Positions 14,060 to 55,933 of a stretch of DNA of 64,000 bases are shown piece by piece. Both the position numbers and the translations under genes were made by a program. Numbering within the stretch: position 1 is the stretch's first letter; each line of letters begins with the position of its first letter. The stretch spans positions 97,049 to 161,048 of the forward strand of contig CAKOXK010000002.1 in NCBI GenBank assembly GCA_934130085.1, written 5' to 3'. The DNA is from an uncultured Clostridia bacterium (GTDB taxonomy: Bacteria; Bacillota; Clostridia; TANB77; CAG-508). Under the pieces are notes generated by a model. It saw only the letters and a list, made by a program, of their open reading frames with translations. It searched no databases and had not been told where the DNA came from.

Positions 14060-14262
14060 TTAATTAATCTTTTAGATTAATTAAAAATTTATAAAAAATA
14101 AATACCATGAAAGCCTAGTAAAATCAACGCACAAAGCTATAGTATAAAAATCGTGTAATAAGAAAAAAAATTTAAAAATTTTTAAGTCAAAACTGTGATT
14201 TATTTACTGTAAGTAAGAGTAACGCGATTTTTACTTTTTAATTAATCTAAAAGCTTAATAAA
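14060..14262. promoter_or_regulatory. Invertible DNA element Inv1 (25-bp IRs flanking a ~153-bp segment), in FLIPPED orientation relative to Inv2-4
   Basis: Left IR 'ttaattaatcttttagattaattaa' (14060-14084) and right IR 'ttaattaatctaaaagcttaataaa' (14238-14262). The internal segment 14085-14237 is the reverse complement of the segments of Inv2, Inv3 and Inv4 (for example 'catgaaagcctagtaaaatcaacgc' versus 'gcgttgattttgcaaggctttcatg'). Confidence 0.8.
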
Positions 14263-14300
14263 AATTTACCTTCAAACTTCAAAAAGAGCCATATCATTTT

Positions 14301-14348
14301 GTACTGAAACCAAAAAACATCTAATCTTTAGTTTCAGTACATTTTATT
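14301..14348 (+). terminator. Plus-strand intrinsic terminator directly outside the right IR
   Basis: 10-bp perfect stem 'gtactgaaac...gtttcagtac' followed by 'attttatt'. It is part of a ~185-bp direct repeat shared with 15707-15890. Confidence 0.6.
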
Positions 14349-14521
14349 GATATGACTCCTTTTTTAATATAAAAATTATAAGCGTTTTACCTATTAAGAA
14401 ACTTATATTCAGTCTGTTATTTAAACATTACCTAACATTAATCTTAGACATACCAGTTAATTTGCATTTTAAAATTAATGTTACCTAATAAAAAATACGT
14501 TTTACTTTATTATTTACATTT

Positions 14522-19624: not shown

Positions 19625-21880
19625 CTATTTAGCAACTTGTAGGACTGGACGAAGCCCACGGCACGAAGAGAGGACGTCGGTGGTAGAAAGGAACACATAG
19701 TCCGCGGTAATAGAGCCACTGCTTGAAACACAGCGTAAGAGGAAGTTAGCGATGCTCCAACGCGCATTAACGCAGCGAGACGAAAGCCAAAATTCAGCGC
19801 CAGCGCTGATATTACTTGTATTTCTGTTTGCTCCACCACCCCAACAAGCATTGTATATAACTTTTAACCAAGGATTACTTGATTTTTTATCGTTATTATA
19901 TCTTTCGTAAGCATAGTTTCCTTTTTGGTCTGTTGAAAGCCAATTGCTTGCGCCACTTGTGCTCATATTATATGATGTTATTTTTGCATCTGAATATCCT
20001 TTGCTTGCTCCTTTTGTTTTATCAATGTTCTCATATTGTGTAAATAGTGTTGGTGCATAGCTATTCCATGTTGATGTTATTTTATTTGGCGCACTTTTAT
20101 CATCTGCATTTGTTGTCCATAAGTTGCCAAAGTTACTTAATTTACTTTCATCTATGAAATCTTCCCATTTTGCATCACGTGCTAACACTACCTTTACTTT
20201 TTTGGTTTGTCCGTTCTTTAACTTTATTTCTGTTAAATTTCCATATAAATTATTACAGATTGTATCTAAAGCTAAAACTCCATTATTATATGCTGGTGCT
20301 CCTGTTAATCTTACCTGTAATTTTGTTGCTCTATCTGCTATATAGTAATCATATTTACTTGTATCAAATGAGCCTGATTGTAAATCATATCCGCCATCTG
20401 TTAGTTTTGACCATGTCATGTCTGATTCTACTGTTGGCAAACCTGAATTTACTTTATTTACTGACTTTATATCTTTTCCAAGTAATGTTGCTATTGAATC
20501 TGCTTTTACATATCCATGTGCTTCGCTTCCACTCTTAGTCTTATAGAATCTATCTACATTTACTGTTGCACCTACAGATGTGTCTGATACACTGTCTGCT
20601 GAAACTGTTATTACTGGACGTAATGAACAGCTTCCACTTCCATTAGAACCTGATGTTGCATAGTTCTGTCCTACTGTAAATAATGTATACGACGACCTTG
20701 CTCCATCTGTCCTTGCATAACCTAATTGGTAAAAATCTCTTGATAGCTCCTCTGAATATGGTGTTTTTCCATCTGACCCGCTATTCCAATCATAATATGC
20801 AGATCTTGTTGCAAGCCAATAATTGTTTCCTGTATTCATCATGCTTACTGTTGATTTATTTGTTCTGTTTAGATTTGTAATTGTTGGTGATGTATTTGCT
20901 GCTAGCATTTGTGTGTTACTTGATTGAGAGGCTGATGTATTTGCTATATCAATATAATCACTTATTTGGTCTGTTGAGAAACCATGATTTGCTGTATCTT
21001 TTTGATTTATTATTGGTTCTATCTTTCTATTGTTTTGGTAAGCTCTTGATACAGAATATGTTACATTATAAAAGTCTTCCGCATTTACACTTCTTGCTGA
21101 TAATACTTTCTTTCCATTAATCTCTAGGTTTCCATATAACTTTGAGCAAATTTCATTTAGTGCTTTTACACCATTTGTATAGCCATTAATTCCTGATATT
21201 GAAACTTCAAATCCTGTATTGGTATTTGCTATTAGGTTGACTGTTCCATCTTCATTTGTACTTAGTACTTTCCAGCCTAAGTCCTCTGTTTCAATCTCTC
21301 CTGCTTCTACCATTGCAATTCCTGGTACATCTTGATTATCATTACTTAGTACTTGCTTTATATGTCTGTTTACTCCTTTGCCATCGGTTTTTCCTATATA
21401 TGTGAATGTTCCATCATCTAGATTTACCATGTAATTGTGACCTTTATACGCTACTTGAGCATATCCATCTCCATTATTTAAGAAGTCTTCAACTTCGCCA
21501 TTCCCTAAATCATCTTGTATATAATCAGCCAATCTTTTATTTTCATCTTCTGCTTTTGAAACCTCTAAACTTGCTAAGTACATACTCATTTCATCCTCGG
21601 CTGATGCCTTTTCTGAAACTACTACCGCGTTTTTTGCCTTTCCAAGAATTCCATCATTGCTTACCATACTTATTGTTATACCTGCTAAAACTAATAAGAC
21701 AATAATTGTAACTACTAAAGCTATTATTGTTATTCCTGCTTGTTTTAATTTATAGTTTTTCAATTTATACTTTTTAAATTTTAATTCATTTATAGAATTT
21801 TTCATACACTCGTTTTTACTTAATTTTAAGCTTTTTTCATCATACCTCATTTTTGCTTTTTCTCCTTTAAAATCTCTCAA
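19625..21880 (-). CDS. Large pilin-like surface protein, paralog 2
   Basis: 751 aa with N-terminus 'KQAG|ITIIALVVTIIVLLVLAGITISMVSNDGILGKAKNA'. Near-identical to paralogs 1 and 3 except the N-terminal leader, a patch around residues 355-410 and the C-terminal VR. Confidence 0.7.
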   Translation of the reverse strand: MRDFKGEKAKMRYDEKSLKLSKNECMKNSINELKFKKYKLKNYKLKQAGITIIALVVTIIVLLVLAGITISMVSNDGILGKAKNAVVVSEKASAEDEMSMYLASLEVSKAEDENKRLADYIQDDLGNGEVEDFLNNGDGYAQVAYKGHNYMVNLDDGTFTYIGKTDGKGVNRHIKQVLSNDNQDVPGIAMVEAGEIETEDLGWKVLSTNEDGTVNLIANTNTGFEVSISGINGYTNGVKALNEICSKLYGNLEINGKKVLSARSVNAEDFYNVTYSVSRAYQNNRKIEPIINQKDTANHGFSTDQISDYIDIANTSASQSSNTQMLAANTSPTITNLNRTNKSTVSMMNTGNNYWLATRSAYYDWNSGSDGKTPYSEELSRDFYQLGYARTDGARSSYTLFTVGQNYATSGSNGSGSCSLRPVITVSADSVSDTSVGATVNVDRFYKTKSGSEAHGYVKADSIATLLGKDIKSVNKVNSGLPTVESDMTWSKLTDGGYDLQSGSFDTSKYDYYIADRATKLQVRLTGAPAYNNGVLALDTICNNLYGNLTEIKLKNGQTKKVKVVLARDAKWEDFIDESKLSNFGNLWTTNADDKSAPNKITSTWNSYAPTLFTQYENIDKTKGASKGYSDAKITSYNMSTSGASNWLSTDQKGNYAYERYNNDKKSSNPWLKVIYNACWGGGANRNTSNISAGAEFWLSSRCVNARWSIANFLLRCVSSSGSITADYVFLSTTDVLSSCRGLRPVLQVAK
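19628..19796 (-). other. Putative DGR variable region at the 3' end of paralog 2
   Basis: Same A-depleted GC-rich block. It retains AAY-type codons (aat, aac, aac) exactly where the other two copies carry substituted codons. Confidence 0.75.
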
Positions 21881-22019: not shown

Positions 22020-24329
22020 TTATTTAACAACTTGCAAGACTGGACGAAGCCTACGGCACGAAGAGTCGACGCCGGTGCCAGAGTGGAACACACAGTCCGT
22101 TATAATGGATCCACTGCTCGAAACAAAGCGTAAGATGAAGTGCGCGTTGTACCAATCCGCAAAAACGCAGCGAGACGAAAGACAAAAGTCAGCGCCAGCG
22201 CTGATATTACTTGTATTCCTGTTTGCTCCACCACCCCAATAAGCATTGTATATAACTTTTAACCAAGGATTACTTGATTTTTTATCGTTATTATATTTTT
22301 CGTAAGCATAGTTTCCTTTTTGGTCTGTTGAAAGCCAATTGTTTGTGCCACTTGTGCTCATATTATATGATGTTATTTTTGCGTCTGAATATCCTTTGCT
22401 TGCTCCTTTTGTTTTATCAATGTTCTCATATTGTGTAAATAGTGTTGGTGCACAGCTATTCCCTGTTACTGTTATTTTATTTGGCGCACTTGTATCATCT
22501 GCATTTGTTGTCCATAAGTTGCCAAAGTTACTTAATTTACTTAATTTACTTTCATCCATGAAATCTTCCCATTTTGCATCACGTGCTAACACTACCTTTA
22601 CTTTTTTGGTTTGTCCGTTTGCTAACTTTATTTCTGTTAAATTTCCATATAAATTATTACAGATTGTATCTAACGCTAAAACTCCATTATTATATGCTGG
22701 AGCACCTGTTAATCTTACCTGTAATTTTGTTGCTCTATCTGCTATATAGTAACCATATTTATTTGTATCAAATGAGCCTGATTGTAAATCATATCCGCCA
22801 TCTGTTAGTTTTGACCATGTCATATCTGATTCTACTGTTGGCAAACCTGAATTTACTTTATTTACTGACCTTATATCTTTTCCAAGTAAAGCTGCTATTG
22901 AATCTGCTTTTACATGTCCATGTGCTTCGCTTCCACTCTTAGTCTTATAGAATCTATCTACATTTACTGTTGCACCTTCAGATGTGTCTGAAACACTGTC
23001 AGCAGAAACTGTTATTACTGGACGTAGTGAACAATTTGCACTTGCATTATTACCTGTTGTATTATAATTTGCGTTCGTATTAAACACCGTAGATGCAGAA
23101 TATGCTCCATCAGTTCTTGCAAAAGCTAATTGATAGGATTCATTTGACAACTCTTCAGAATATGGTGTTTTTCCATCGGTTCCATGATCCCAACCACAAG
23201 ATGCAGATCTTGTTGCAAGCCAATAATTGTTTCCTGTATTCATCATATCTATTGTTGATTTGTTTGTTCTGTTTAGATTTGTAATTGTTGGTGACGCATT
23301 TGCTGCTAGCATGTGTGTGTTACTTGATTGTGCTCCTGATGTATTTGCTATATCAATATAATCACTTATTTGGTCTGTTGAGAAACCATGATTTGCTGTA
23401 TCTTTTTGATTTATTATTGGCTCTATCTTTTTATTATTTTTATAGGCTCTTGATACAGAATATGTTACATTATAAAAGTCTTCCGCATTTACACTTCTTG
23501 CTGAAAGTACTTTCTTTCCATTAATCTCTAGACTTCCATATAACTTTGAGCAGATTTCATTTAGTGCCTTTACACCATTTGTATAGCCATTAATTCCTGA
23601 TATTGAAACTTCAAATCCTGTATTTGTATTTGCTATTAGGTTGACTGTTCCATCTTCATTTGTACTTAGTACTTTCCAGCCTAAGTCCTCTGTTTCAATC
23701 TCTCCTGCTTCTACCATTGCAATTCCTGGTACATCTTGATTATCATTACTTAGTACTTGCTTTATATGTCTGTTTACTCCTTTGCCATCGGTTTTTCCTA
23801 TATATGTGAATGTTCCATCATCTAGATTTACCATGTAATTGTGACCTTTATATGCTACCTGTGCATAACCATCTCCATTATTTAAAAAATCTTCAAGACC
23901 ATCATTTCCTATATTTGCACTTAAATAGTCAGCAAGTCTTCCTGTATTTCCTTCTTGTTCTCTTTGAATGTCTATACCTGCTAAATACATACTCATTTCT
24001 TCTTCAGCAGAAGATTTGTCTGAAACTGCTACAGCATTTTTTGCTTTTCTAAGAATTCCATCATTGCTTACCATACTTATTGTTATACCTGCTAAAACCA
24101 ATAAGACAATAATTGTAACTACTAAAGCTATTATTGTTATTCCTGCTTGAGTAATTTTATATTTTCTTAATTTGCATTTATTTATTTGATTGCTGTTACT
24201 AATTTTCTTATTTTCATTGTCCCTGTTTTTCATTTTTAATCTCATTCCTTCCTTGCCTCCGCTATCGCTAAGGCACAAATCCTTATTAAATCTAGAGTAT
24301 CTCATTTTTAATCTCCGTATAATGCGCAT
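22020..24329 (-). CDS. Large pilin-like surface protein, paralog 3 (first gene of the array)
   Basis: 769 aa with a long basic leader, then 'TQAG|ITIIALVVTIIVLLVLAGITISMVSNDGILRKAKNA'. It has a conventional AT-rich upstream region shared divergently with the RHH gene at 24719. Confidence 0.7.
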   Translation of the reverse strand: MRIIRRLKMRYSRFNKDLCLSDSGGKEGMRLKMKNRDNENKKISNSNQINKCKLRKYKITQAGITIIALVVTIIVLLVLAGITISMVSNDGILRKAKNAVAVSDKSSAEEEMSMYLAGIDIQREQEGNTGRLADYLSANIGNDGLEDFLNNGDGYAQVAYKGHNYMVNLDDGTFTYIGKTDGKGVNRHIKQVLSNDNQDVPGIAMVEAGEIETEDLGWKVLSTNEDGTVNLIANTNTGFEVSISGINGYTNGVKALNEICSKLYGSLEINGKKVLSARSVNAEDFYNVTYSVSRAYKNNKKIEPIINQKDTANHGFSTDQISDYIDIANTSGAQSSNTHMLAANASPTITNLNRTNKSTIDMMNTGNNYWLATRSASCGWDHGTDGKTPYSEELSNESYQLAFARTDGAYSASTVFNTNANYNTTGNNASANCSLRPVITVSADSVSDTSEGATVNVDRFYKTKSGSEAHGHVKADSIAALLGKDIRSVNKVNSGLPTVESDMTWSKLTDGGYDLQSGSFDTNKYGYYIADRATKLQVRLTGAPAYNNGVLALDTICNNLYGNLTEIKLANGQTKKVKVVLARDAKWEDFMDESKLSKLSNFGNLWTTNADDTSAPNKITVTGNSCAPTLFTQYENIDKTKGASKGYSDAKITSYNMSTSGTNNWLSTDQKGNYAYEKYNNDKKSSNPWLKVIYNAYWGGGANRNTSNISAGADFCLSSRCVFADWYNAHFILRFVSSSGSIITDCVFHSGTGVDSSCRRLRPVLQVVK
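22023..22190 (-). other. Putative DGR variable region at the 3' end of paralog 3
   Basis: Same A-depleted GC-rich block with the third set of codon variants (ttt, gat, aac, cac, atc, ttt...). Confidence 0.75.
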
Positions 24330-29609: not shown

Positions 29610-30599
29610 TTACTTTCCAGAAACCTTTATATAATTTATTACATTTATTCCTGCTTCTGCTCCCTCGTATACAGCTTTACTTACTTGTAAAAGTCCTCCT
29701 GTAATATTTCCGCAAGCAAATACTCCTGGAACATTAGTCTGCATTTTATCATTTACAACAATAGTTTCATTTTTTGTAATGATGCCCATTCTTTTTGCAA
29801 ATTCAAATCCACCAGCTATGCCTTCAGCAATAAAAACTCCATCAACCTGAATTTCATTTGAATCATTTGAATTTGAATCATCAGAATTTGAATTTGTTGA
29901 ATTTGAATTCTTTTCGCCTAAAATACTGTTACATTCAATAAACTGTCTTTCACTTGCTTTATTCTTATTAACTTCTTCTTGATTACTTTCTTTGTTATTG
30001 CTTTTGCATTCATTGATGTCATTCTTCAAAGTAATACTTTTAACTTTTTGCTCTGTTCCATTTATTGACTTTATTTCTGAACTAGTAAGTATTCTAACAC
30101 TTTTGGCTACTTTTTTCAACACGTCCGCTTCTTCAATTGCATTTTTTCCATCTCCAATAACCACAACATTTTTACCCTTATAAAAATATCCATCACATAA
30201 AGCACAAAAACTTACGCCTTTATTAATGTATTTTTCAATATTTTCGATTTTAGGCACGATTCTTTTTAGACCAGTAGCCAAAATAACGGCCTTTGCCTGA
30301 TAAGTATCATTTTCAGATTTTACTTTAAACTCAAGATTATCTTCCATCTCAATATTAAGTATTTCTTCTTTTTTTATTTCTATACCTGAGTTAGTTGCTT
30401 GCATTATTCCTTTTTCAAATAATTCTTTTCCAGAAATTCCATTTTCAAATCCATAATAATTATCAATTTTTTCTGCTTTTTCAAGCTCCGACTCTCCTTT
30501 ATAAAAAACAATTGGGTTCATACCAGCTCTTTTTATATAAATTGATGCTTGAATTCCTGCAGGTCCAGCTCCAACTATAATACAATCATATATTTTCAA
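29610..30599 (-). CDS. trxB: Thioredoxin reductase-like flavoprotein with N/S/D-rich low-complexity insertion
   Basis: 'IIVGAGPAGIQASIY', redox 'CALCDG' and 'VFACGNI' motifs. There is a ~60-aa insert 'NDINECKSNNKESNQEEVNKNK...NSNSTNSNSDDSNSNDSNE', encoded by tandem 'aatttgaat' repeats at 29850-29900. Confidence 0.8.
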   Translation of the reverse strand: MKIYDCIIVGAGPAGIQASIYIKRAGMNPIVFYKGESELEKAEKIDNYYGFENGISGKELFEKGIMQATNSGIEIKKEEILNIEMEDNLEFKVKSENDTYQAKAVILATGLKRIVPKIENIEKYINKGVSFCALCDGYFYKGKNVVVIGDGKNAIEEADVLKKVAKSVRILTSSEIKSINGTEQKVKSITLKNDINECKSNNKESNQEEVNKNKASERQFIECNSILGEKNSNSTNSNSDDSNSNDSNEIQVDGVFIAEGIAGGFEFAKRMGIITKNETIVVNDKMQTNVPGVFACGNITGGLLQVSKAVYEGAEAGINVINYIKVSGK

Positions 30600-31257: not shown

Positions 31258-31846
31258 TTATTCTTTTATCCATTTGTCGTCTTTTAAATATAATATCTCA
31301 TTATCCGTCAGTGTTTCAACTTTTCTATTTTCTTTTAATAACTCTTTATATATTTTTTCTCTTTCTTTGCAATAGTGGCAAACTAAGATTCCATCATATA
31401 AATTAAGCCCCGACATATCTTTCTCATTGACTATATTATCATCAAATTTTAGAACATGCTTTAAGCTATTTGTTGCAATATGCGTTCCAGCACTTGCTCC
31501 TATATATATTACACCGTTTTCTTAAATAGTTATATATACTTTTCTCAAATCTTGATCTTTTTAAATAGTGTTTAAGTACAAATGTATTTCCACCACATAC
31601 ATATATAATATCTATATTTAGATTACTAAATTGACTCGCTTTTTCGTCATCAAAGAAATATATATTTTCTTTTCTAAATCCCAATTCTATATAATCTTTA
31701 ATATATTTTTCCTTTTTATATTCGTTCTTTCTTGCTGTTGGTATAACTAACATCCTTATTTCTTTTATATCTATATTTATTAAATTCATAATTTTATTAA
31801 AAACTAATTTGTTTTCAAATCCTTTTGACGTTAATATTACTTTCAT
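31258..31846 (-). pseudogene. pepE: Peptidase E (S51 dipeptidase) with an apparent frameshift
   Basis: N-terminus 'MKVILTSKGF...IIYVCGGNTFVLKHYLKRSRFEKSIYNYL' in one frame. The continuation 'ENGVIYIGASAGTHIATNSLKHV...KDDKWIKE*' is in the +1 frame from ~31520, at 'ttaagaaaacgg' (an A-tract). Confidence 0.65.
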
Positions 31847-31921: not shown

Positions 31922-32833
31922 TTACTTTATCATACACTCATTTAAGAAGTCCTTATACACTGTTGCAATCACCTTGTTAGCTTTCTCTTCCATATTTTTA
32001 AGCATGACAATATCTGTATTATTAAAATAATTGTTAAATGCAGTGTTCTTAGGTTCTATTACTCCTTTCCTGGCTTTTAAAATAGATTCCAATTCAAAAT
32101 TTCTAGTCCTACGAAATTCACGTTTGTGTTCTCTATATCCAACTTCATACCTCATGTTTCTTGTCATATCTTTTATTGCCGCCAAAAACATTGCGCTATT
32201 TCCTGATAAACAACTTTTTTTATCTAAATCTCCAAACATATGCATTAGGTTTCTTAACGAATAGTTATTGTTTGCTAATTCGGGCATGAAAAACTTGCTT
32301 ATTGTTCCTGTATAGTCTAAAGAATATATACTATATGCCCATTTTTCTTTTTCTAGAGATGCATAATATTTTGTATAATTTTCTTCCAAATATATATTCC
32401 GAAAAGATACATTTTTAAAATGCTTTTCAGCACTTCTACGAATAAATTCAGTAGTTTCTTTATAAACAACATCCATAGGCATTAACCTAATAAATGTTAA
32501 ATATGAAGAATCATCTTGATTTAACTTTTCTCTATTTTTTTCTGTTATCAACCTCTTGTTTAGCAACTTTTGCAAAATTTCATTTTTGTCTGCTATCAAT
32601 GTTTTGTCATTCTTTACTGGATTAAAGTCAAATCCTGATAGGTATTTTTCGTAAAACCCTACAGTTCCATGAGGCATTATTTTTTTACTTTTCTTAGGTA
32701 AATTGTGCCCATAATACACTATAATTGAATTTTTATCATAAAATTGAGGGTCTGATTGCCTCGCCGTATATATTAAAGCAATTGTTTTTTCAATTGATTC
32801 ACCGCTATTTTGTAACGAAATAATTTTCTTCAC
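31922..32833 (-). CDS. Hypothetical protein (no confident family assignment)
   Basis: 303-aa ORF with good RBS context, adjacent to a GT4-like glycosyltransferase. Confidence 0.4.
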   Translation of the reverse strand: MKKIISLQNSGESIEKTIALIYTARQSDPQFYDKNSIIVYYGHNLPKKSKKIMPHGTVGFYEKYLSGFDFNPVKNDKTLIADKNEILQKLLNKRLITEKNREKLNQDDSSYLTFIRLMPMDVVYKETTEFIRRSAEKHFKNVSFRNIYLEENYTKYYASLEKEKWAYSIYSLDYTGTISKFFMPELANNNYSLRNLMHMFGDLDKKSCLSGNSAMFLAAIKDMTRNMRYEVGYREHKREFRRTRNFELESILKARKGVIEPKNTAFNNYFNNTDIVMLKNMEEKANKVIATVYKDFLNECMIK

Positions 32834-32836
32834 AGC

Positions 32837-33787
32837 TCATTCCTCCACATTTTTTATAATAGAATTTATGAAACTTTTTATTGATTCTCTTTTTATACTT
32901 TCTTCAAAATTTTTTAGTATTACCTCTTTTGAACATATCTGAATCAATTTTGAAATAATTGGTTCATTATTGTACAAATTTACCTTGAATTTCATGCAAT
33001 CTATATGTCCATCAACATTTGAAACCAGCACTGGAACTTTCAATTGTTTTGCTTGAACCGCTGTCAAGTTATATGCCTCTGTTCTTGAAAATTGAATATA
33101 TGATTTAGAATTACATAATATATTCAAAAAATCATCATGATTGAATTTTCTACATTTAATTCCCATATATTCTCCATCAAATCCTAAAATTAGAGCTTTG
33201 TCTTTCAGTTTTATTTTCTCCATCTGGCTAGCGAACACATCTACCCCTTTTAAAGTCCGATATCTATAATCAGGTGATGTACAAATTGTTACATATTTAT
33301 CATAATATGGTTTTAATTCTACCTTCTTTCCTTGTTTTTGAATTCTATCTATTCCTATTTGAATAACTCCAACATTTATGCCAATTTTCTCATATTGTTT
33401 TGCTACGTTTTCTGATGGGCAAAAAAATTTAATATTATATCTTTTTTGAATATTTTCTAAATAATCTAAAAACAGTAACTTTTCTTTTTTAAATTGATAA
33501 TATTTTGGTGCTACATGTAGAAAAACAGAATATCTAATCCCATTTTTAGATAATAATTCCAAGTTAGAAATTATAGGATACATATGACCTGTTACATGTA
33601 AAATGTAGTTATCCTTTTGATTAAATCTGAATGACATCATATCATGCGTGAAAATAACTTTCTGATTTTCCTCTATTTGTAATGGTTGAACAAGTTGATG
33701 TAATGTACCATATCCATCGTGTTCTACAATATGAATTATAAATGAATATTTTCTATCCTTTTTTCCATTTTCAAATTCAATCCGCAT
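32837..33787 (-). CDS. Glycosyltransferase, family-1/GT4-like
   Basis: The C-terminal 'FSRTEAYNLTAVQAKQLKVPVLVSNVDGH' matches the GT-B E-X7-E/nucleotide-sugar-binding region. Confidence 0.55.
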   Translation of the reverse strand: MRIEFENGKKDRKYSFIIHIVEHDGYGTLHQLVQPLQIEENQKVIFTHDMMSFRFNQKDNYILHVTGHMYPIISNLELLSKNGIRYSVFLHVAPKYYQFKKEKLLFLDYLENIQKRYNIKFFCPSENVAKQYEKIGINVGVIQIGIDRIQKQGKKVELKPYYDKYVTICTSPDYRYRTLKGVDVFASQMEKIKLKDKALILGFDGEYMGIKCRKFNHDDFLNILCNSKSYIQFSRTEAYNLTAVQAKQLKVPVLVSNVDGHIDCMKFKVNLYNNEPIISKLIQICSKEVILKNFEESIKRESIKSFINSIIKNVEE

Positions 33788-34256
33788 ATAAGAACCTCCT
33801 TAAATAATATATGATTTTCAATGTACAAATACTTAAATTGTATTATATCACTTTTATTTTTTATGTCAACTTTTTGCTTATAAATACAATTTTTCTGCTT
33901 ATAACAAGTGAAAAAGTAAATGCACGTATCAACAAGGTGCATTGCAATAAGTCTTACATTTAGTCTTAATGTACAATATAATGCAATTTTGTTTATTAGC
34001 TATGTAAATTTTCTTTGAAATCTATATTAATTTTACACAAAAAAGCAAGGTTTTTGAGCAAATATATTGCTTAAAACTTGCTTTTTCTCGTACAAGTTGC
34101 ATTTAACTTTTTACTTGACGTTACAATCTAAAATGTAAGAGTTTGTTTTGTTTTTTGGTTGAGCTAGAATAGTATCTATATTGTTACAAACATTGAGTCC
34201 AGAATTATAAATTTCAAATAACTGCTTTGACGTATATTTCGGATTGTTTAATAGTT

Positions 34257-35027
34257 TTATTTAAGTCTTACTTTTTTATATTGTACATTATAGGCTAAAC
34301 CTATAAATTCGTCACTGATTTCTTCTAATCCGATATTAATCTTTTTGCAAACTTTCATTATTAAATTACTTATTTGCCCTTGTGTAATTGGTTCTACCAA
34401 AGCCTCTTTAGGGTCATAATTTAATAGTTTTGCAATTGTTATTTCGCTTTCATTTGGCAACTCCATAATCTTTTTAACAGCAGTATAAACAGGCTCATTC
34501 CAGTATGGATCATTATTTCCTATTACTTCTTCAACAATCTTTTTTAATTTTATGTCAGGATTTTCTTCTACAACTCTTTCATTATTATTAAGTAATCTAT
34601 TGTATTTTTCAAATATTTGCTTTACATCTAATGGCTTTACAATTTCTTTTGTAAAATCATTAAACAAGTGTCGATTTAATGAAAGTTTTTTAAAAAATTC
34701 TATTTTTCCGTCTTCACTTATATTAGTCAATTTATTAAAATATTCTTTTAATAAGTCTATCCAAAATGGATCATTTCCAATAAAAGATTCTATCACTTTC
34801 TCTAATGTTTCTGTCATCAAATTTAAATTCTTATCATAATCATAATTACATTTACTACAATGATATGTAGGATTATCCGGTCTCAATATACAACCGCCCG
34901 CAATATATTTATTTGTATCAATTTCTCCTTTAATTTTTCCATAAATATATTCCTTTAAAATCGAATGACATTTTGGACATCTAATTTCTTCTTTTTCATT
35001 TAATTCAAAACTTGGTTCTATAGCCAT
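34257..35027 (-). CDS. Hypothetical protein with N-terminal CxxC...CxxC zinc ribbon
   Basis: 'CPKCHSIL...HCSKCNY' at the N-terminus. It lies directly downstream of the ADP-ribosyltransferase gene. Confidence 0.4.
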   Translation of the reverse strand: MAIEPSFELNEKEEIRCPKCHSILKEYIYGKIKGEIDTNKYIAGGCILRPDNPTYHCSKCNYDYDKNLNLMTETLEKVIESFIGNDPFWIDLLKEYFNKLTNISEDGKIEFFKKLSLNRHLFNDFTKEIVKPLDVKQIFEKYNRLLNNNERVVEENPDIKLKKIVEEVIGNNDPYWNEPVYTAVKKIMELPNESEITIAKLLNYDPKEALVEPITQGQISNLIMKVCKKINIGLEEISDEFIGLAYNVQYKKVRLK

Positions 35028-35056
35028 TTTTTATCGCTCCTTTTTAATATTATTTT

Positions 35057-36511
35057 TTATAATTCCATACTTCCCATATCCTCTATAGGCTGTTGTTGAA
35101 CTTGTCCTTGTACCATTGTGGTATCACCTTGTTCTTGATTTTGTTGTGGTTGTTGTTCTCTGTGTTTCCTTGCAGTTTCAGCACTTTCTCTTTGTATTCT
35201 AGCCTTCTCTTCTGGTTCTAATTCCCATGATTTCTTTTCTCCTGTTTCAGTTTTTGTATTTTGTTGTCTATCTAGATAAGTCGTATCTTGTGTTTCATCG
35301 TTTCTTCCTCTATAAAATATTGATCTAATTTGACTAAAAAATCTTGAAAATCTATTTTGTCTAGCAGGTAATTTTTCTAAATTTTCGTGTTGTGAATATT
35401 TTTGGTGTTGTATCGTTTGGTTATACAAATTATTACTTTCTGTTTGTGTAGAAAAAGTTTTCTCATAACTATTGTATCTTTGTTCTGTTGCTTGTTGTCC
35501 TATATCTTTATAGCATTCTCTTTCTTTACTTAGTAATATTCCTTTTAAAACCGTCTTCGTTTTTCCATTTTGATCTACAACTCCCTTTTGAGCATCTATA
35601 ACATAAATATCATTAGGATTTAATAAAACTTCTTGCTCTGCACTATCATAATCTGATAATTGTGTTATATAAGTACCTTGTGTTCCTTTTGGTGCATATA
35701 TCTCCATAACAGTATCATAATCATCATATTTTGCAAATGATGATTGGTACAAGGGTGATGTACTTGTATATCCTTTATTGCTTATACTTTTTCCAATATA
35801 ACTCTCTGGATTTATATTTCCATCTGTTTTTATTGCTCTATAAAGTTTCATTGATTTTGATAATTTTGCTTTTGATAATCCTTCATCTAAGTTTGATAAT
35901 GTACTATCAATATGTTCTAAAGAATCCATATCTTTAACTGCTGTACAAATTGATGGATAACAATTATGTGGAATATTTCTTTGTTGAATATATTGACTAA
36001 TCATTTCATAATTTTCATGTACTGGCTTACTAAAATCTAGTGATTGAATATAATCTTCTATACCTTTAATTTGTTCTTGTGAAAGAGCTCTAGTTTTTAA
36101 TTTGTCCTCCATATCTGTTTTTATTCCATTTTGAATCTGACTTCTATCTGTCCAACTTCTTTTCATAGACAAAATCATATTACTTCCGTTGCTATATTGG
36201 TTTATTGCTTTTGCATTCTCAATACTTAAGTTATTCTTTTTTAATTCTTGCATAAATCCATCAATTTCTTTAGGATTTGTTCCTTGCTGTATCAATTCGT
36301 CAATAGTGTATCCATCTGCTAATCCTCTTAATACATTTTGATAATTAGCATCAGAGTTAAAAATTTGCTTTAAATCAATACTATTTTGAAAAGAGGAATA
36401 TTCACCATTTATAATCTCATCAATTTCAGATTCAGTTAACCCCTGTTTTTTCAGTATATCTGTAAGTGTTTGAGTTTGCTCATTCGACATTTTTAAGTGT
36501 TCGATTTGCAT
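35057..36511 (-). CDS. ADP-ribosyltransferase-domain protein (R-S-ExE class, C3/iota/VIP2-like) with Q-rich C-terminal tail
   Basis: Catalytic triad motifs are in order: 'KLYRAIK' (Arg), 'GYTSTSPL' (STS) and 'SAEQEVLLNPN' (ExE; compare iota Ia 'EYEVLLN'). There is no signal peptide, and the C-terminus is a low-complexity 'REQQPQQNQEQG...QGQVQQQP' tail. Confidence 0.7.
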   Translation of the reverse strand: MQIEHLKMSNEQTQTLTDILKKQGLTESEIDEIINGEYSSFQNSIDLKQIFNSDANYQNVLRGLADGYTIDELIQQGTNPKEIDGFMQELKKNNLSIENAKAINQYSNGSNMILSMKRSWTDRSQIQNGIKTDMEDKLKTRALSQEQIKGIEDYIQSLDFSKPVHENYEMISQYIQQRNIPHNCYPSICTAVKDMDSLEHIDSTLSNLDEGLSKAKLSKSMKLYRAIKTDGNINPESYIGKSISNKGYTSTSPLYQSSFAKYDDYDTVMEIYAPKGTQGTYITQLSDYDSAEQEVLLNPNDIYVIDAQKGVVDQNGKTKTVLKGILLSKERECYKDIGQQATEQRYNSYEKTFSTQTESNNLYNQTIQHQKYSQHENLEKLPARQNRFSRFFSQIRSIFYRGRNDETQDTTYLDRQQNTKTETGEKKSWELEPEEKARIQRESAETARKHREQQPQQNQEQGDTTMVQGQVQQQPIEDMGSMEL

Positions 36512-36556
36512 ATTTTTTACTTCCTTATCTTTCGATATTTTTCTTAATTAAATTTA

Positions 36557-37354
36557 TTATTTTTCTTGTGTAGTTTCTTGATTAGATGTTACAATCATTC
36601 CATCTACAGCTTCATTTATAATTTTAAGCATAAACTCAATAAACTCATTTGAATTTCCTGCATTATTGCAATTTTGAATTGCTGTATAATATTCTTCTTG
36701 ATGTTTCCTTATTATACTTTCTATTGGAATATATTTAAACAATTCTTTCCAATGTGCAAGTATTGCTGTTTGCCATAATCTTGCTGTTCTTCCATTTCCA
36801 TCTGAAAAAGGATGTATAAATACAAATTCATAATGAAATATGGAAGATAAAATCAAAGGATTAACATTTTCTTTAACTTCATTCATCCATCTAAATAGGT
36901 TATCCATTAATTCTGGAACCATTCTATGAGGTGGAGCCATAAATATTTGAACATCCCCATCATAAACAGCTTCTCCATGATTTCTAAATTTTCCGCTATC
37001 ATCTTCAATAGCAAAAGTAAATATTCCCTGTACCTTTTTTAAATCATCTATAGAATACGGATTCACATTATCAATTTCTTCATAAGCTTTATATGCATTT
37101 TTAACTTCTTGAATGTCTTTTTGTTCTCCAATAACTGCTTTTCCATTTATTACTGCTTCAACTTGAAACAATGATAATTGATTATTTTCAATAGCTAAAG
37201 ATGAATGTATTGATTGTATTCTTGTTTTCTTTCTTAATTCTGGAAATCTATTTAAACTTTCAAAATAATTTGCTTCTCCTATTTTCTCCATTATGCCTGT
37301 TGCTAAATTTAACATTTTATCTGTTATTGTATATGGTGGGTAATTTATTTCCAT
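36557..37354 (-). CDS. Fic/DOC family protein (AMPylator-type)
   Basis: Canonical Fic motif 'HPFSDGNGRTARLW'. Confidence 0.85.
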   Translation of the reverse strand: MEINYPPYTITDKMLNLATGIMEKIGEANYFESLNRFPELRKKTRIQSIHSSLAIENNQLSLFQVEAVINGKAVIGEQKDIQEVKNAYKAYEEIDNVNPYSIDDLKKVQGIFTFAIEDDSGKFRNHGEAVYDGDVQIFMAPPHRMVPELMDNLFRWMNEVKENVNPLILSSIFHYEFVFIHPFSDGNGRTARLWQTAILAHWKELFKYIPIESIIRKHQEEYYTAIQNCNNAGNSNEFIEFMLKIINEAVDGMIVTSNQETTQEK

Positions 37355-37646
37355 TTTAAAACCTCCAATTTCTATATGTATTATAACACAAACATATTCA
37401 TTATGATACTATCTATTATTTATTTTCTACTAAACATTTATAAACTTAATCTTCTGTAAGTTTATTTTTTTCATTTTAGTAATTTTGTCTTTAGCGTTTT
37501 TTCATTGTTCAAATTCTTTTTGAATTATTTGGCTTTCATATTTCTGCAAATGCTTTATTAGAACCAATTAATTTTTGATAAAATAAAAAAATTATCATAC
37601 TTAAACCTACTTGCAAAAATAAGTTTAATTAGATAATTCTTTAAAA

Positions 37647-37721
37647 TGGTTGGGCTAGCTAGATTCGAACTAGCGCATGTTAGAGTCAAAGTCTAATGCC
37701 TTACCGCTTGGCTATAGCCCA
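37647..37721 (-). tRNA. tRNA-Gln (anticodon TTG)
   Basis: The reverse complement gives a 7-bp acceptor stem UGGGCUA/UAGCCCA, anticodon loop CUUUGAC, T-loop GTTCGAATC and an encoded CCA. Confidence 0.8.
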
Positions 37722-37742: not shown

Positions 37743-37820
37743 TGGGGTGGAGTGTGGGATTCGAACCCACGGTCTCCAGTGCCACAAACTGGCGCGTTAA
37801 CCAACTACGCTAAATCCACC
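37743..37820 (-). tRNA. tRNA-His (anticodon GTG) with encoded G-1
   Basis: The reverse complement 'GGTGGATTTAGCGTAGTTGGTTAACGCGCCAGTTTGTGGCACTGGAGACCGTGGGTTCGAATCCCACACTCCACCCCA' has anticodon loop TTGTGGC and an extra 5' G. Confidence 0.75.
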
Positions 37821-39452: not shown

Positions 39453-41204
39453 CTATTCTAGTATTGCCTTTATTCTTCTTACCCCAGCTGAGCTTGCCTC
39501 TTCTTTTACTATTTTGAAGTGTCCTAATTCTCTTGTATTGTTTACATGAGGGCCTCCGCATATTTCTTTTGATACATTTCCTATTGTGTATACGGTTACT
39601 TCATCTGGATATTTTTCAATGAACATACATTCTGCCCCTGATTTTATTGCTTCGCTTTTATTCATTTTTCCGTTTTTTACATCAAGGCCATCTTTTATCC
39701 ATTCATTAACCAAATCTTCTGTTTTCTTTTTTTCTTCATCAGTCAATTTATGGTCACATGAGAAGTCAAATCTCATTCTGTCTTCTGTAATGTTTGATCC
39801 TTTTTGATGACAATCTTTTGAAACTGTTATTTTTAATGCTGCATTTAATAAGTGTGTTGCTGTATGATATGCAATCTCTTTCTGGCTTGTTCCTGCAAGT
39901 CCACCCTTAAATTTTTTGTCAGATCCTAATTTTGATTTTTCTTGATGTGCTTTGAATAGTTCATTTACTTCTTCCATGTTAACTTTCATGCCATTTTCAA
40001 TCGCTAAATCTTTAGTAACTTCTGGTGGGAAACCGTAAGTCTCGTATAATTTGAATATTGATTCACTATCAATTGTATCTTTATTTTCTGATTTTAGTTT
40101 GTTTAACACTTTATTAAATTCTTTTTCTCCATGAGATAGTGTTTTCATAAACTTATCTTTTTCAGCTACAATTACTTCTTTTATTGTTTCTTTTTTATCA
40201 ACAAGCTCTGGGTACATCTCTTTTAAGTTTTCAATATTTAAATCAACTAGCTCTGGTAGTTTATCAAGGTCAATTTGTAATTTGTTCAAATGACGTGTCA
40301 TTCTACGAATTAATCTACGTAAAATGTAACCCCTATCAATATTACTTGGTCTTCCTCCATCTGATATAATCATCATGCTGGCTCTTAAGTGTTCTGCTAC
40401 AATTCTTCTGCTTTCTATATTATCATTCTTTGCAAGTTTTTGTAATTCATCCATAATTGGTGCAAATATTTCTGTATCAAATGGAGTTTTTTTACCTTGT
40501 AATAGCATTGCCATTCTTTCAAGACCTAAACCTGTATCAACATTTCTTTGGGCAAGTTTTGTATATTTTCCATCCTTTTTCAAAAATTCCATGAAAACAT
40601 TGTTCCAAATTTCAACATATTTTCCACAGTCACATGATGGCTGACAATCAGGTCCACAAGCAGGCTTCCCTGTATCATAGAACATTTCTGTATCAGGTCC
40701 ACAAGGTCCTTCTTCACCTGCAATCCACCAGTTATCATCTTTACCATAGAAATATATTCTCTCTTTTGGTATTCCTGCCTTTTCCCAGCATGTAGCTGTT
40801 ACATCATCTCTTTTACAGTCTTCATCACCTGCAAAGCATGTAACAGATAGCTTCTCTTTTGGTATTCCAAGTTCTTTGGTTAGAAACTCGAAACTCATGG
40901 CAATTGCTTCTTCTTTAAAATAATCACCTAAAGACCAGTTACCTAGCATTTCAAAATAAGTTAAGTGACGGTTATCTCCAACCTCATCAATGTCATTAGT
41001 TCTTAAGCATTTTTGGTAATCCGTTAATCTCTTGCCCTCTGGGTGCTTTTCACCTAATAAATAAGGTACTAATGGTTGCATTCCAGCTGTAGTAAATAAT
41101 ACAGATGGATCATTTTCTGGTATCAATGAGGCACTTGGTATTACTTTATGACCGTGTGCTTCAAAAAATTTTAAATATTTATTTCTAATCTCTATTGCTT
41201 TCAT
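39453..41204 (-). CDS. alaS: Alanine--tRNA ligase, short form (catalytic + tRNA-recognition + compact editing module; no C-Ala domain)
   Basis: 'IRNKYLKFFEAHGHKVIPSASLIP', 'LFTTAGMQ', 'GNWSLGDYFK' and 'VDTGLGLERM' are class-II AlaRS core motifs. 'HTATHLL' and 'ICGGPHV' are editing-site motifs. The protein is ~583 aa against the usual ~875. Confidence 0.7.
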   Translation of the reverse strand: MKAIEIRNKYLKFFEAHGHKVIPSASLIPENDPSVLFTTAGMQPLVPYLLGEKHPEGKRLTDYQKCLRTNDIDEVGDNRHLTYFEMLGNWSLGDYFKEEAIAMSFEFLTKELGIPKEKLSVTCFAGDEDCKRDDVTATCWEKAGIPKERIYFYGKDDNWWIAGEEGPCGPDTEMFYDTGKPACGPDCQPSCDCGKYVEIWNNVFMEFLKKDGKYTKLAQRNVDTGLGLERMAMLLQGKKTPFDTEIFAPIMDELQKLAKNDNIESRRIVAEHLRASMMIISDGGRPSNIDRGYILRRLIRRMTRHLNKLQIDLDKLPELVDLNIENLKEMYPELVDKKETIKEVIVAEKDKFMKTLSHGEKEFNKVLNKLKSENKDTIDSESIFKLYETYGFPPEVTKDLAIENGMKVNMEEVNELFKAHQEKSKLGSDKKFKGGLAGTSQKEIAYHTATHLLNAALKITVSKDCHQKGSNITEDRMRFDFSCDHKLTDEEKKKTEDLVNEWIKDGLDVKNGKMNKSEAIKSGAECMFIEKYPDEVTVYTIGNVSKEICGGPHVNNTRELGHFKIVKEEASSAGVRRIKAILE

Positions 41205-41323
41205 TAAAATCTGTCCTTTCAATTCGTTTTCATTATAGCATATTTAGCAAAAAAATGTAAACCTTTTAAATTATAATTTTTCCGCAGTTTGACACTAAAA
41301 TTTGTTTTTTAAATTGAATTTTT

Positions 41324-42718: not shown

Positions 42719-42871
42719 TCAAATTTGCTTTCTTATTTTACTTTAAAATTAAGGCAATGTCAATAATTATGTAAATTTATTGGATGCAAGTGCGTGCAAA
42801 TTGCATTTAACTTTTTACTTGACGTTCAAATAATGTAGGTTATTAAATTCCAACAACCTAAAAAGCACTTT

Positions 42872-48607: not shown

Positions 48608-48646
48608 AATATCTCCTTTCAAAAACAATTTAAATATTACAAATTT

Positions 48647-48778
48647 AATATTATGTTGTTTTTCGATGACTTGCTTACTGCAATCTTCGTTAGTCGACAT
48701 CAACTGTCGGAAGATTGCACCATTCGTGCTCGCTACGCTCACTTGATCGCTGCGCGTCATCTTAAACAATATAATGTT
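48647..48778. repeat. MITE/REP-like structured repeat, copy 4 (A orientation, hybrid variant)
   Basis: The TIR is 'aatattatgttg...caatataatgtt'. It carries the 'gcaatcttc/gaagattgc' stem variant otherwise seen in B-orientation copies. It lies immediately upstream of hisS. Confidence 0.8.
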
Positions 48779-51006: not shown

Positions 51007-51041
51007 AACAAATCCTTTCTATATCCTTTCTATATATATTA

Positions 51042-51166
51042 AATATTATATTGTTTGAGAAATCCGCGCAGCGATCAAGCGTAGCGCGAATGGTGCAATC
51101 TTCCGAAAGTTAGTATTGACTAACGAAGATTGCAGCGAGCAAGGATTCGAAAAACAATATAATATT
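51042..51166. repeat. MITE/REP-like structured repeat, copy 5 (B orientation)
   Basis: It reads as the reverse complement of the A copies ('...ccgcgcagcgatcaagcgtagcgcgaatggtgcaatcttccg...cgaagattgcagcgagcaagg...'). A truncated half-copy follows at 51183-51240, overlapping the recJ 3' end. Confidence 0.85.
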
Positions 51167-51237
51167 TAATATTAATTAATTCATATTGTTTCGGAAAGCC
51201 GCGTAGCTTACATGCGAAGTGCGAATGGTGCAATCTT

Positions 51238-55539: not shown

Positions 55540-55636
55540 ATTAAAAATCCTCCCACTAAGCTTTTTGTTTAATTTTATGATGGAGGGGTTCAATATATTC
55601 ATGAAATGCAGCAAAATTGATTAGAAAAAAAACTTT

Positions 55637-55761
55637 AATATTATATTGTTTAAGAAAGTCGCGCAGCGATCAAGCGAAGCGCGAATGGTGCAATCTTCCG
55701 AAAGTTAGTATTGACTAACGAAGATTGCAGCGAGCAAGGCTTCGAAAAACAATATAATATT
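55637..55761. repeat. MITE/REP-like structured repeat, copy 6 (B orientation)
   Basis: Near-identical to copy 5. Confidence 0.85.
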
Positions 55762-55933
55762 AAAGCTTTTTTAAATAATAAAGTTAATTTTCTCTTTTCA
55801 TATAAAACAAAAGGGCAAGTCATCTTAAAGAAAACCAAATTTAATACTTTTAGTTTTATTTAGAATGACTTGCTTTTTACGAAAGTTTTTGTATAAAACA
55901 TTTTTGCATTATAAATATTTATCATGTTTAGGT

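Follow-up and report, generated by a model that had tools for sequence, protein, structure and literature searches.

Mono-ADP-ribosyltransferases (ARTs) of the R-S-E class are familiar mainly as pathogen exotoxins or host-takeover enzymes of phage T4. C3-like and Certhrax-type enzymes (PF03496; C3bot2 1R45, Certhrax 4FXQ and C3stau2 1OJZ) carry R, S-T-S and Q/E-x-E in a common order and spacing. Binary actin toxins (iota, C2, CDT and VIP2) have a signal peptide, an N-terminal second ART-fold adaptor and a binding-component gene, while the 180-aa Lmo0066 of Listeria monocytogenes (PDB 8ZA7), described as an 'ART-ARH type toxin effector-immunity pair', and the Tre1-Tri1 pair are defined by an adjacent and required ADP-ribosylhydrolase immunity gene. 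Class II Fic proteins (PDB 4RGL; FICD/HYPE; SoFic) combine HPFxDGNGRxxR with an N-terminal (S/T)xxxE(G/N) inhibitory motif, and SoFic is classed in PADLOC as a single-gene defence. ARTs are the commonest protein-modifying domains in the polyvalent effector proteins of conjugative elements; T4 Alt, an R-S-E ART, serves as the model, although the polyvalent-protein ARTs belong to the H-Y-D clade and not to R-S-E (Iyer et al. 2017, PMC5512222). In Firmicutes, mobilizable elements (IMEs) with MOBV (Mob_Pre) relaxases and Tn4451-like mobilisable transposons have been described (Guedon et al. 2017, PMC5704250). Literature searches on Lmo0066, PF03496, ADPrib_exo_Tox and ART-ARH gave nothing on the ART family reported here, and no named or studied member was found.

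The window analysed here is a whole 64,000-nt stretch of DNA from an uncultured Clostridia bacterium (GCA_934130085.1, contig CAKOXK010000002.1, positions 97,049 to 161,048), and the locus is its block 34164..37545 on the minus strand. Three open reading frames listed in the initial annotation, for a Fic protein (36557..37354, 265 aa), an ART (35057..36511, 484 aa) and a Zn-ribbon protein (34257..35027, 256 aa; hereafter the partner), were all found on the minus strand at those coordinates. On the same strand lie tRNA-His(GTG) (37743..37819; ARAGORN, Rfam tRNA 64.9 bits) and tRNA-Gln(TTG) (37647..37721; ARAGORN, Rfam and blastn), and the mobile-element remnant starts about 100 bp downstream of the tRNA-Gln 3' end. 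The block had been placed between this tRNA pair and glycosyltransferase genes; the tRNAs were confirmed by ARAGORN, whereas the glycosyltransferase call is weak, with all Pfam matches of 32837..33787 below the cut-offs. The fic gene, the ART gene and the shortened partner gene likely form one transcription unit behind tRNA-Gln. A promoter scan gave no excess over the shuffled expectation, a canonical terminator was not found, and the Rfam scan returned three tRNAs and nothing else.

The ART carries LYRAIK (aa 223-228), GYTSTSP (aa 247-253) and AEQEVLLNPN (aa 291-300). In an alignment of 38 homologues with 42-98% identity, R225, S250-T251-S252 and E292-Q293-E294 were invariant (codons at 35837-35839, 35756-35764 and 35630-35638, respectively). 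The protein scored 57.7 bits against Pfam PF03496 ADPrib_exo_Tox (cut-off 23.4, aa 167-327), and phmmer against PDB sequences retrieved Lmo0066, Certhrax, C3larvin and Vip2, with the motifs aligned to LYRG, STT and EAE of Lmo0066. Because the Pfam score is above the cut-off and PDB matches were obtained by phmmer, the motif match goes beyond chance, and the motifs, order and spacing proposed in the initial annotation were confirmed. Structure prediction, named there as a check, gave the ART fold of a PF03496/C3-like R-S-E mono-ART. The folded part (aa 1-330, 35522..36511; profile, alignment and structure prediction) begins with about 95 aa of family-specific short helices, which are not an ART fold, and continues with a C3-like catalytic domain; what had been called an uncharacterised ~200-aa N-terminal region is actually made of these helices and the usual helical N-lobe of that domain. 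The reported lack of a signal peptide was borne out, and no hydrophobic segment was detected (maximum 19-residue Kyte-Doolittle mean 0.37). The protein is thus a predicted cytoplasmic R-S-ExE mono-ADP-ribosyltransferase with a C3/Certhrax/Lmo0066-like fold. The arginine specificity suggested by its ExE form may serve as a lead only; Certhrax has a QxE motif, yet arginine modification has been reported for it.

The likeness to the C3-like and Certhrax-type enzymes lies in the order and spacing of the motifs, at a sequence identity of only 24-26%. Unlike them, the window ART has no signal peptide, adds the ~95 aa of conserved N-terminal helices and a 150-aa conserved disordered tail, and belongs to a family whose genes lie under a Cro-like repressor in mobilizable elements of commensal gut Clostridia. 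Lmo0066 shares the ExE-type motif and the presence of a partner gene beside a bacterial ART, but is without both extensions. The kinship with binary actin toxins drawn in the initial annotation did not hold, since signal peptide, second ART-fold adaptor domain and binding-component gene are all absent; no binding (B)-component-like neighbour of the ART was seen in any annotated context.

The C-terminal tail (aa 331-484 and stop, 35057..35521; family alignment, pLDDT and strain variants) is Gln-rich and, over aa 341-484, predicted to be disordered except for a low-confidence helix at aa 433-452 (pLDDT below 50 at aa 341-432 and 453-484). Three conserved motifs were recognized in it, NLPxRQNRFSxFFxQxRSxF (aa 377-399), EKKSWELEPEEKARIQRE (aa 425-442) and the C-terminal QQPxxDMGxMEL (aa 473-484). 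Its variable middle is swapped among strains and is lost in L042 (related loci are given L numbers) by a premature stop. The dN/dS of the ART against nine alleles was 0.15-0.31, showing purifying selection.

In the Fic protein, the catalytic motif HPFSDGNGRTAR (aa 181-192) and the inhibitory motif S52-x3-E56-N57 (SLAIEN, aa 52-57) are both intact, as in class II Fic proteins. It matched Pfam Fic (2e-19), PDB 4rgl_A (1.5e-66) and PADLOC SoFic (1.3e-42, over positions 20-270 of the 361 in the profile), whereas against the NCBIfam SoFic equivalog it reached 60.9 bits at a cut-off of 550. The catalytic and inhibitory motifs of a class II, SoFic-type Fic are therefore present, but neither the full architecture nor an equivalog-level score. 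Unlike class II Fic proteins, it has lost the C-terminal winged helix through a frameshift and a deletion, while more than 100 clusters of close homologues are 325-330 aa long with this winged helix (HTH_24/MarR_2).

The origin of the block was found in intact relatives. The order in these elements is tRNA attachment site, tyrosine integrase, HTH_17 excisionase-like gene, 155-aa HTH protein, DUF6076, cargo slot 1, reverse Cro/C1-type HTH_26 repressor, cargo slot 2 and reverse Mob_Pre relaxase. Slot 1 holds defence-type cargo (full-length Fic-wHTH with an AAA_18 kinase-like gene, HEPN with Schlafen, or AAA_15/21 with Schlafen; the domain names seen were Fic/SoFic-like, HEPN_Apea, Schlafen AlbA_2 and AAA_15/21). 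Slot 2 holds either the ART with its Zn-ribbon/winged-helix partner or a zincin-like protein set, with an HEMGH motif and a faint Peptidase_M78 match (E 0.059); the zincin type is typical of polyvalent effector proteins. The tail of the ART showed no similarity to that of the 496-aa protein of the alternative slot-2 set. As slot 1 of these elements is defence-like, slot 2 could be defence cargo too, which would count against an effector reading of the ART. In L035 the order is int-xis-154aa-DUF6076-Fic-AAA_18-HTH_26(reverse)-308-496-79-133-Mob_Pre(reverse), and the element is delimited by tRNA-Leu and a direct repeat (56 bp) of the tRNA-Leu 3' end; its Fic is full-length (330 aa) and 97% identical to the window Fic, and it has no ART. 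L050 and L015 have the L035-type backbone, with the ART and a 428-aa partner between HTH_26 and Mob_Pre, and no Fic.

By blastn, the window had only 36542..34164 in common with L015 and L050 (96-97% nucleotide identity) and only 37545..36562 in common with L035 (95%; L035 7806-8793). At the tRNA side, 37355..37545 comprises the pseudogenised 3' end of DUF6076, an IME backbone gene, and the fic upstream region (blastn and three-frame translation); it is 95% identical to L035 7806-8000, with the reading frame disrupted by stop codons and a frameshift. At the other side, 34164..34256 is a non-coding remnant of the third module of the partner (blastn and sequence comparison), and 34164 is the distal limit of homology with the intact cassette (window 34260-34164 corresponds to L015 12604-12700 and L050 9626-9722, blastn). 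Neither an integrase nor a relaxase, HTH_26 or intact DUF6076 is encoded in the window, and no repeat of the 3' end of tRNA-Gln that could serve as a distal att site (direct repeat) was found in it. As in the Firmicutes MOBV elements (Guedon et al. 2017, PMC5704250), a tyrosine integrase, an excisionase and Mob_Pre occur in L035 and L050, along with a direct repeat of a tRNA 3' end, whereas the window has neither recombinase nor relaxase and no att repeat could be recognised in it. Since these parts are absent in the window and present in L035 and L050, the window holds a remnant and not an element. Judged by sequence comparison, the block 34164..37545 is an eroded IME remnant of uncultured gut Clostridia, holding only cargo and a backbone pseudogene. 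The accessory, tRNA-proximal island recognized in the initial annotation is supported, the block being what is left of a mobilizable element that integrates at tRNA genes.

The deletion junction that joins the 3' region of fic to the ribosome-binding site of the ART (36537..36562; side-by-side sequences and blastn end-points) was analysed by setting the sequences of the window, L010, L035, L015 and L011 side by side. A 1-nt loss in an A-run makes the fic stop codon, and about 108 nt kept in L011 are missing from the window, with the short repeat AAAAAT at both edges; the junctions of the window and L011 are nested deletions of one fusion event. L011 is an unrelated locus in which tRNA-Gln also directly abuts the fic remnant. 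Deletions stripped away the integrase side, most of DUF6076 and the relaxase, together with the whole segment, repressor included, that lay from the 3' part of fic to the ribosome-binding site of the ART. Because they brought the truncated fic up to the ART, the Fic-ART adjacency is a scar and not a designed pair. From the junction sequences and the shared backbone, we infer that a Fic-plus-ART ancestor element probably existed; among the elements recovered, none had Fic in slot 1 and ART in slot 2.

The partner has two Cys pairs (CPKC, aa 17-20; CSKC, aa 57-60) and consists of a Zn ribbon, a helical 'IGNDPFW' module (aa ~74-152) and a winged-helix-like 'IGNNDPYW' module (aa ~158-254). Compared with the 428-aa form of the intact elements, from which it derives by deletion, it lacks the N-terminal ~73 aa and the third module. 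Homologues adjoin the ART in the window, L001, L007, L015, L016, L023, L026, L031, L032, L034 and L050, so the Zn-ribbon protein is a genuine recurrent ART partner in ~11 independent contexts. In four of five sister strains it is absent through clean deletions from two independent events (L010 lacks window 35042-34280; L039, L041 and L042 lack 35039-34234), and the ART is intact in three of these four (L010, L039 and L041), L042 having the premature stop. The initial annotation was therefore right about a possible partner, while an essential antitoxin or immunity protein is rejected; the indispensable neighbour gene of a type II toxin-antitoxin system is not seen here. Unlike the ADP-ribosylhydrolase expected beside an Lmo0066-like ART, the window partner is a dispensable Zn-ribbon/winged-helix mosaic with a winged-helix fold, not ARH.

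About 280 relatives of the ART were collected, all from gut Clostridia metagenomes. No match was obtained by tblastn against 72,556 plasmids and 50,697 phage records or in an IMG/VR scan, and a phage or plasmid origin of the ART is unsupported; the link to conjugation therefore comes from integrated elements only. PADLOC, PHROGs and NCBIfam contain no model of the family. Over 21 distinct contexts, the recurrent neighbours of the ART were HTH_19 (5), YhcG (4), DUF6076 (4), Mob_Pre (3), TnpV (3), resolvase/recombinase (3) and phage integrase (2); L007 has TnpV, Mob_Pre and serine recombinases, a likeness to the MOBV elements and Tn4451-like transposons. Conservation of the locus as core across the genus had been named as evidence against an accessory module, and it holds in part: the 265-aa Fic and the ART are adjacent at this site in all five examinable strains of the species, while outside the species the ART occurs in many unrelated contexts. 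The ART module with most of its N-terminal helices also lies within the 3457-aa protein P0326 (residues 2095-2401; 36% identity, E 2e-57), a recurrence in a multidomain protein that may parallel that of polyvalent-protein ARTs. Pfam found nothing in P0326 besides this module, and its similarities to the transglutaminase neighbour in L004 and to the zincin-like protein of L035 were not significant, so the 'Rosetta-stone' argument is limited to the ART module itself. The module is C-terminal in further proteins of 550-1045 aa with differing N-terminal parts.

From the genomic context, we infer that the ART would transfer ADP-ribose from NAD+ to a side chain, probably that of arginine, of a protein in the bacterium harbouring or receiving the element. 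Its native operon would be controlled by the divergent repressor, and expression on entry into a repressor-free recipient is therefore proposed. The ART would then be a host-modifying or establishment effector, with a logic like that of T4 Alt/ModA/ModB and of polyvalent-protein effector domains of conjugative elements, these also being mobile-element ARTs predicted to act on bacterial host proteins; its predicted R-S-E chemistry is that of T4 Alt, while unlike the polyvalent-protein ARTs it is R-S-E and not H-Y-D, stands alone and has its own partner. The partner would be an accessory or regulatory component and not a neutralising antitoxin. Taken as a whole, a collapsed IME with a host-modifying or establishment effector and an accessory or regulatory partner is the explanation we favour, at a little better than even confidence.

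The two-enzyme operon proposed in the initial annotation, in which Fic and ART form one toxin/effector unit with the Zn-ribbon protein as immunity factor, fits the adjacency fixed in the species, the fic remnant that precedes the ART in L011 and L012 as well, and the distant Fic gene convergent to the ART in L024 and L025; but the window and L011 junctions descend from one fusion, the Fic is truncated relative to its close homologues, L035 as the sole full-length context examined has AAA_18 and not ART after fic, 17 of the 21 ART contexts have no Fic, and the ART is kept in strains without the supposed 'immunity' gene. In the intact elements examined, Fic lies in slot 1 (L035) and the ART in slot 2 (L050 and L015). 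This reading is largely refuted by the junction analysis, and we consider it highly improbable. A secreted C3/iota-like exotoxin against eukaryotic host proteins such as actin or Rho, or else a toxin delivered against bacteria in the manner of Lmo0066 from the Listeria T7SS locus, is suggested by the nearest solved structures, which are exotoxins and Lmo0066, by the ExE motif, by DUF4176 and Endonuclea_NS_2 genes near the ART in two loci, and by P0306, a 737-aa relative of polymorphic-toxin look with the ART at the C-terminus and a Gly/Ala-rich, hydrophobic N-terminal part. The window ART, however, lacks a signal peptide and any hydrophobic segment, carries neither LXG nor another delivery domain and comes without a binding-component gene; the annotated contexts showed no immunity gene of the ADP-ribosylhydrolase or macrodomain type, the partner fold is not ARH, and the ART domain is central and followed by the conserved tail, whereas polymorphic toxin domains are C-terminal. 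Such a toxin is thus quite improbable.

As another reading, the ART and its partner would be IME cargo that makes up a two-gene abortive-infection defence against phages or MGEs, in which the partner would sense or regulate and the ART would shut down a host or phage protein by ADP-ribosylation. The defence-type genes of slot 1, the PADLOC SoFic match, the variable-island look of the ART contexts and the persistence of the ART under purifying selection in a non-mobile remnant agree with it; against it, the ART matches no PADLOC family, retention of the ART after loss of the partner in four of five strains speaks against an obligate sensor-effector unit, a Cro/C1-like repressor beside a relaxase is unusual for constitutive defence genes, and the ART module also occurs within a giant multidomain protein. 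We regard this module as possible but unlikely. Against the host-modifying or establishment reading, the ART has stayed intact under purifying selection in a remnant that cannot transfer, which argues that it benefits the resident cell too or is simply young. A bolder form, to which we give only tentative credence, is that the ART and its partner are an undescribed repressor-controlled 'entry' module of gut Clostridia mobilizable elements and the conjugation-side counterpart of T4 Alt. The ART may be expressed by zygotic induction, or even be translocated via the type IV secretion system of a helper through the conserved C-terminal tail, and may modify a recipient protein (e.g. a defence or transcription/translation factor), aiding establishment.

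The interpretation in the initial annotation is thus partly supported, and the locus gives a caution for annotation: two 'effector' genes near a tRNA may be a deletion scar of a mobile element and not an operon. The ART family of the window, with about 280 relatives, proves to be regular cargo that small mobilizable elements carry in abundant, uncultured Clostridia of the human and animal gut, and it has conserved extensions of its own and a partner dedicated to it. If a host protein is indeed modified for establishment or defence, the biology of conjugative transfer would gain a post-translational weapon in the gut microbiome.

In the window, three minus-strand ORFs encode Fic (36557..37354, 265 aa), the ART protein (35057..36511, 484 aa) and the Zn-ribbon partner protein (34257..35027, 256 aa), with tRNA-Gln(TTG) (37647..37721) and tRNA-His (37743..37819) immediately upstream, as the initial annotation had placed them. 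Of the motifs that it quoted, those of the ART are at aa 223-228, 247-253 and 291-300, and that of Fic is at aa 181-192. Since GC is uniform at ~25-30%, composition gives no island mark.

The predicted ART domain proved genuine by Pfam, PDB-sequence matches and a structure model. Its catalytic domain is a member of a known Pfam family (PF03496, 57.7 bits, cut-off 23.4), and phmmer against PDB sequences matched Lmo0066 (8ZA7_B, 1.2e-7), Certhrax, C3larvin and Vip2, with which the R, STS and ExE motifs align. In the AlphaFold2 model, built on 38 homologues, confidence is high for most of aa 1-330 and dips near aa 281-290; from aa 341 to the end the chain is disordered, save for one helix of low confidence at 433-452. 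The catalytic domain, in which R225, S250-T-S252 and E292-Q-E294 are invariant, is preceded by ~95 aa of N-terminal helices and followed by a tail that bears three conserved motifs and terminates in QQPxMDMGGMEL; the complete architecture is kept down to 42% identity in the alignment of homologues. All 282 relatives are unnamed and of metagenome/MAG origin, and none was found in plasmid, phage and IMG/VR collections. Among GTDB species representatives there are 20 ART-bearing loci; the hosts are nearly all uncultured gut Clostridia, sampled from human (Hadza, Nepal, Brazil), rabbit and goat. Over codons 1-330, dN/dS was 0.15-0.31 against nine alleles, same-species copies included.

A profile for the first 165 aa of the ART matched just 91 proteins among 1.84 billion representatives, most of them of the same ART family, while a few place the module in other architectures: P0326 (3457 aa), P0315 (1045 aa, with DUF4116), P0316 (550 aa, with a HAD/NT5C domain) and P0306 (737 aa). 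Residues 2095-2401 of P0326, a metagenomic giant protein, are the ART module (36% identity, E 2e-57). Pfam gave no match on P0326 at E 0.001 or better; by eye, it also shows a C..H..D segment of transglutaminase type (about residues 975-1030), a zincin motif, HETLH, at about residue 2585, and recurrent 'VETLDVNNDDKVDVEQTE' linkers.

The window Fic is of class II and preserves its catalytic motif as well as the inhibitory SLAIEN. By sequence, the nearest solved structure is 4RGL (1.5e-66), with FICD at ~1e-17 and SoFic at ~7e-10; the PADLOC SoFic model matched at 1.3e-42 over positions 20-270 of 361 only, and Fic scored far under the cut-off of the NCBIfam SoFic equivalog. Close homologues form >100 clusters at 87-97% identity, almost all 320-337 aa long and ending in an HTH_24/MarR_2 winged helix, so the 265-aa Fic is truncated.

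A full-length Fic 97% identical to that of the window (P0167) is located in contig L035, in an IME (4210-15399) integrated in tRNA-Leu and bounded by the tRNA-Leu gene and a 56-bp direct repeat of its 3' end, ~11 kb apart. This element encodes integrase, HTH_17, 154 aa, DUF6076, Fic-wHTH, AAA_18 and HTH_26 (reverse), then proteins of 308, 496, 79 and 133 aa and Mob_Pre (reverse). The element of contig L050 (1-11758) has the same backbone, in the order integrase, HTH_17, 155 aa, DUF6076, AAA_15/21, Schlafen-wHTH, HTH_26 (reverse), ART, 428-aa partner and Mob_Pre (reverse), and its ART is 94% identical to that of the window; contig L015 carries the same element type with HEPN_Apea + Schlafen in the first slot. 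From this common layout, the IME family, which belongs to gut Clostridia, has two cargo slots. Slot 1 contains defence-type genes, Fic among them, and acts as a defence-gene hot spot, since Fic + AAA_18, HEPN_Apea + Schlafen and AAA_15/21 + Schlafen alternate there. Slot 2 is flanked by the Cro/C1-like repressor and relaxase genes and contains ART and partner or an alternative set that includes the 496-aa protein, with a HEMGH motif and a faint Peptidase_M78 match.

By blastn, window 37545..36562 is common to L035 (95%) and 36542..34164 to L015 and L050 (96-97%), with no other matches between the window and these elements. Positions 37355..37545 are the DUF6076 3' end, interrupted by stops and a frameshift. 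At the junction, one A is gone from an A-run in fic, a stop codon arises there, and the rest of the winged-helix-coding sequence is missing. Contig L011, from another species, has ~108 nt more of fic, joined to the ribosome-binding region of ART as in the window, and a tRNA-Gln directly abuts the remnant there; both junctions appear to stem from one fusion event through nested deletions. Genes for integrase, excisionase, repressor and relaxase are all lacking from the window. Given the shared blocks, the junction and the absent backbone genes, the Fic-ART adjacency is read as a scar that deletions left in a decaying IME, and we consider this history highly probable. Fic and ART had been proposed as one module; an operon of the two is unlikely. 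The window ART is stranded behind a truncated fic.

The contexts of ART vary widely between genomes, from a Tn4451-like mobilisable element in locus L007 (TnpV, Mob_Pre, serine recombinases) and an ICE-like region in loci L004-L006 to chromosomal spots adjoining various tRNAs. A Pfam scan of 194 neighbouring ORFs found recurrent HTH_19 (5), YhcG (4), DUF6076 (4), Mob_Pre (3), TnpV (3), resolvase/recombinase (3) and phage integrase (2). By phmmer and a module HMM, a partner-type protein directly adjoins ART in the window and in loci L001-3, L007-9, L015, L016/17, L023, L026, L031, L032, L034 and L050-54. The partner has only 45 relatives, none named and none with a meaningful Pfam family (one bears a single unrelated precomputed domain); they are mosaics that combine an N-terminal helix with either of two Zn ribbons and 1-3 ~85-aa 'IGNNDPFW' modules. 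The window partner derives from the 428-aa form by deletion: its N-terminal ~73 aa are gone, and the third module remains only as non-coding DNA (34164..34256).

Five contigs of the same species, with flanks 97-99% identical, were compared at this site. Fic(265 aa)-ART was present in 5/5, and the differences lie downstream. The window has the 484-aa ART followed by partner, GT-like 316 aa and 303 aa; sister strain L010 has a 482-aa ART with a different tail allele and lacks 35042-34280, with a 9-bp TATAAAAAA repeat at both edges; L041 (ART 484 aa) lacks 35039-34234 and 34097-32043; L042 has the same two deletions and an ART of 364 aa with a premature stop; and L039 (ART 478 aa) lacks 35039-34234 and 34121-31170. 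These differing deletions indicate that the partner was removed at least twice. Of the four strains without partner, three have an intact ART, which speaks against the Zn-ribbon protein being an antitoxin or immunity protein.

Other features of the window were also recorded. The GT4-like 316-aa ORF (every Pfam match under cut-off; PHROG glycosyltransferase 5e-10) and the 303-aa ORF without family form a strain-variable block (31922-33787, -), which the window and L010 have and L039, L041 and L042 lack; the promoter ahead of it (33842-33869) is a perfect TTGACA-16-TG-TATAAT consensus. A Peptidase_S51 ORF (31466-31846, -) has 126 aa only and aligns to positions 3-115 of a profile of 206; the gene is probably truncated, and the short form is kept likewise in L010, L041 and L042. 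A thioredoxin-reductase-like ORF (29610-30599, -) with an Asn/Ser-rich low-complexity insertion has 329 aa in the window versus 303 aa in L010. The alanyl-tRNA synthetase-like protein (39453-41222, -) has 589 aa only, with tRNA-synt_2c and tRNA_SAD and without the C-terminal extension; sister strains have the short form at 583 aa. Three tandem paralogous ORFs (17009-19231, 19625-21880 and 22020-24329, all -; 740, 751 and 769 aa, without Pfam family) correspond to a single 728-aa homologue in L039, which matches two of them at ~87% nucleotide identity and falls inside a 95% block with its syntenic copy.

A dispersed intergenic repeat of ~130 nt occurs at 2912-3044(-), 5476-5638(-), 48644-48730(-), 51039-51169(+) and 55627-55771(+), and in L039 (3599-3769) and L010 (3701-3871); one copy of the sister strains is absent from the window near 42781-42840. 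It ends in 17-nt terminal inverted repeats, TTTAATATTATATTGTT ... AACAATATAATATTAAA, and its internal hairpin has compensatory changes among copies (TTTTTTTCTTC/GAAGAAAAAAA vs GTGCAATCTTC/GAAGATTGCAG). No Rfam match was found, and the repeat looks like a MITE or structured RNA element.

The ART is a cytoplasmic C3-like R-S-ExE ART encoded as IME cargo and linked to a modular partner. Literature searches found no description of its family-specific extensions, the partner family or the IME slot organisation. The ART would ADP-ribosylate a bacterial protein, and the ExE rule points to Arg as the likelier residue. Natively it would be under repressor control, and its expression would therefore be expected on arrival in a new cell. 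As the main rival, a defence (abortive infection) module would fit the defence-type cargo of slot 1; we rate it as rather improbable. For an exotoxin, the matches to Certhrax and Vip2 are to be set beside the finding that the ART has no hydrophobic N-terminus, and this reading is unlikely. We tentatively favour an ART that may serve as a host-modifying/establishment effector, likened to T4 Alt and polyvalent-protein effector domains (PMC5512222; PMC12084326); the window itself carries a remnant of an IME.
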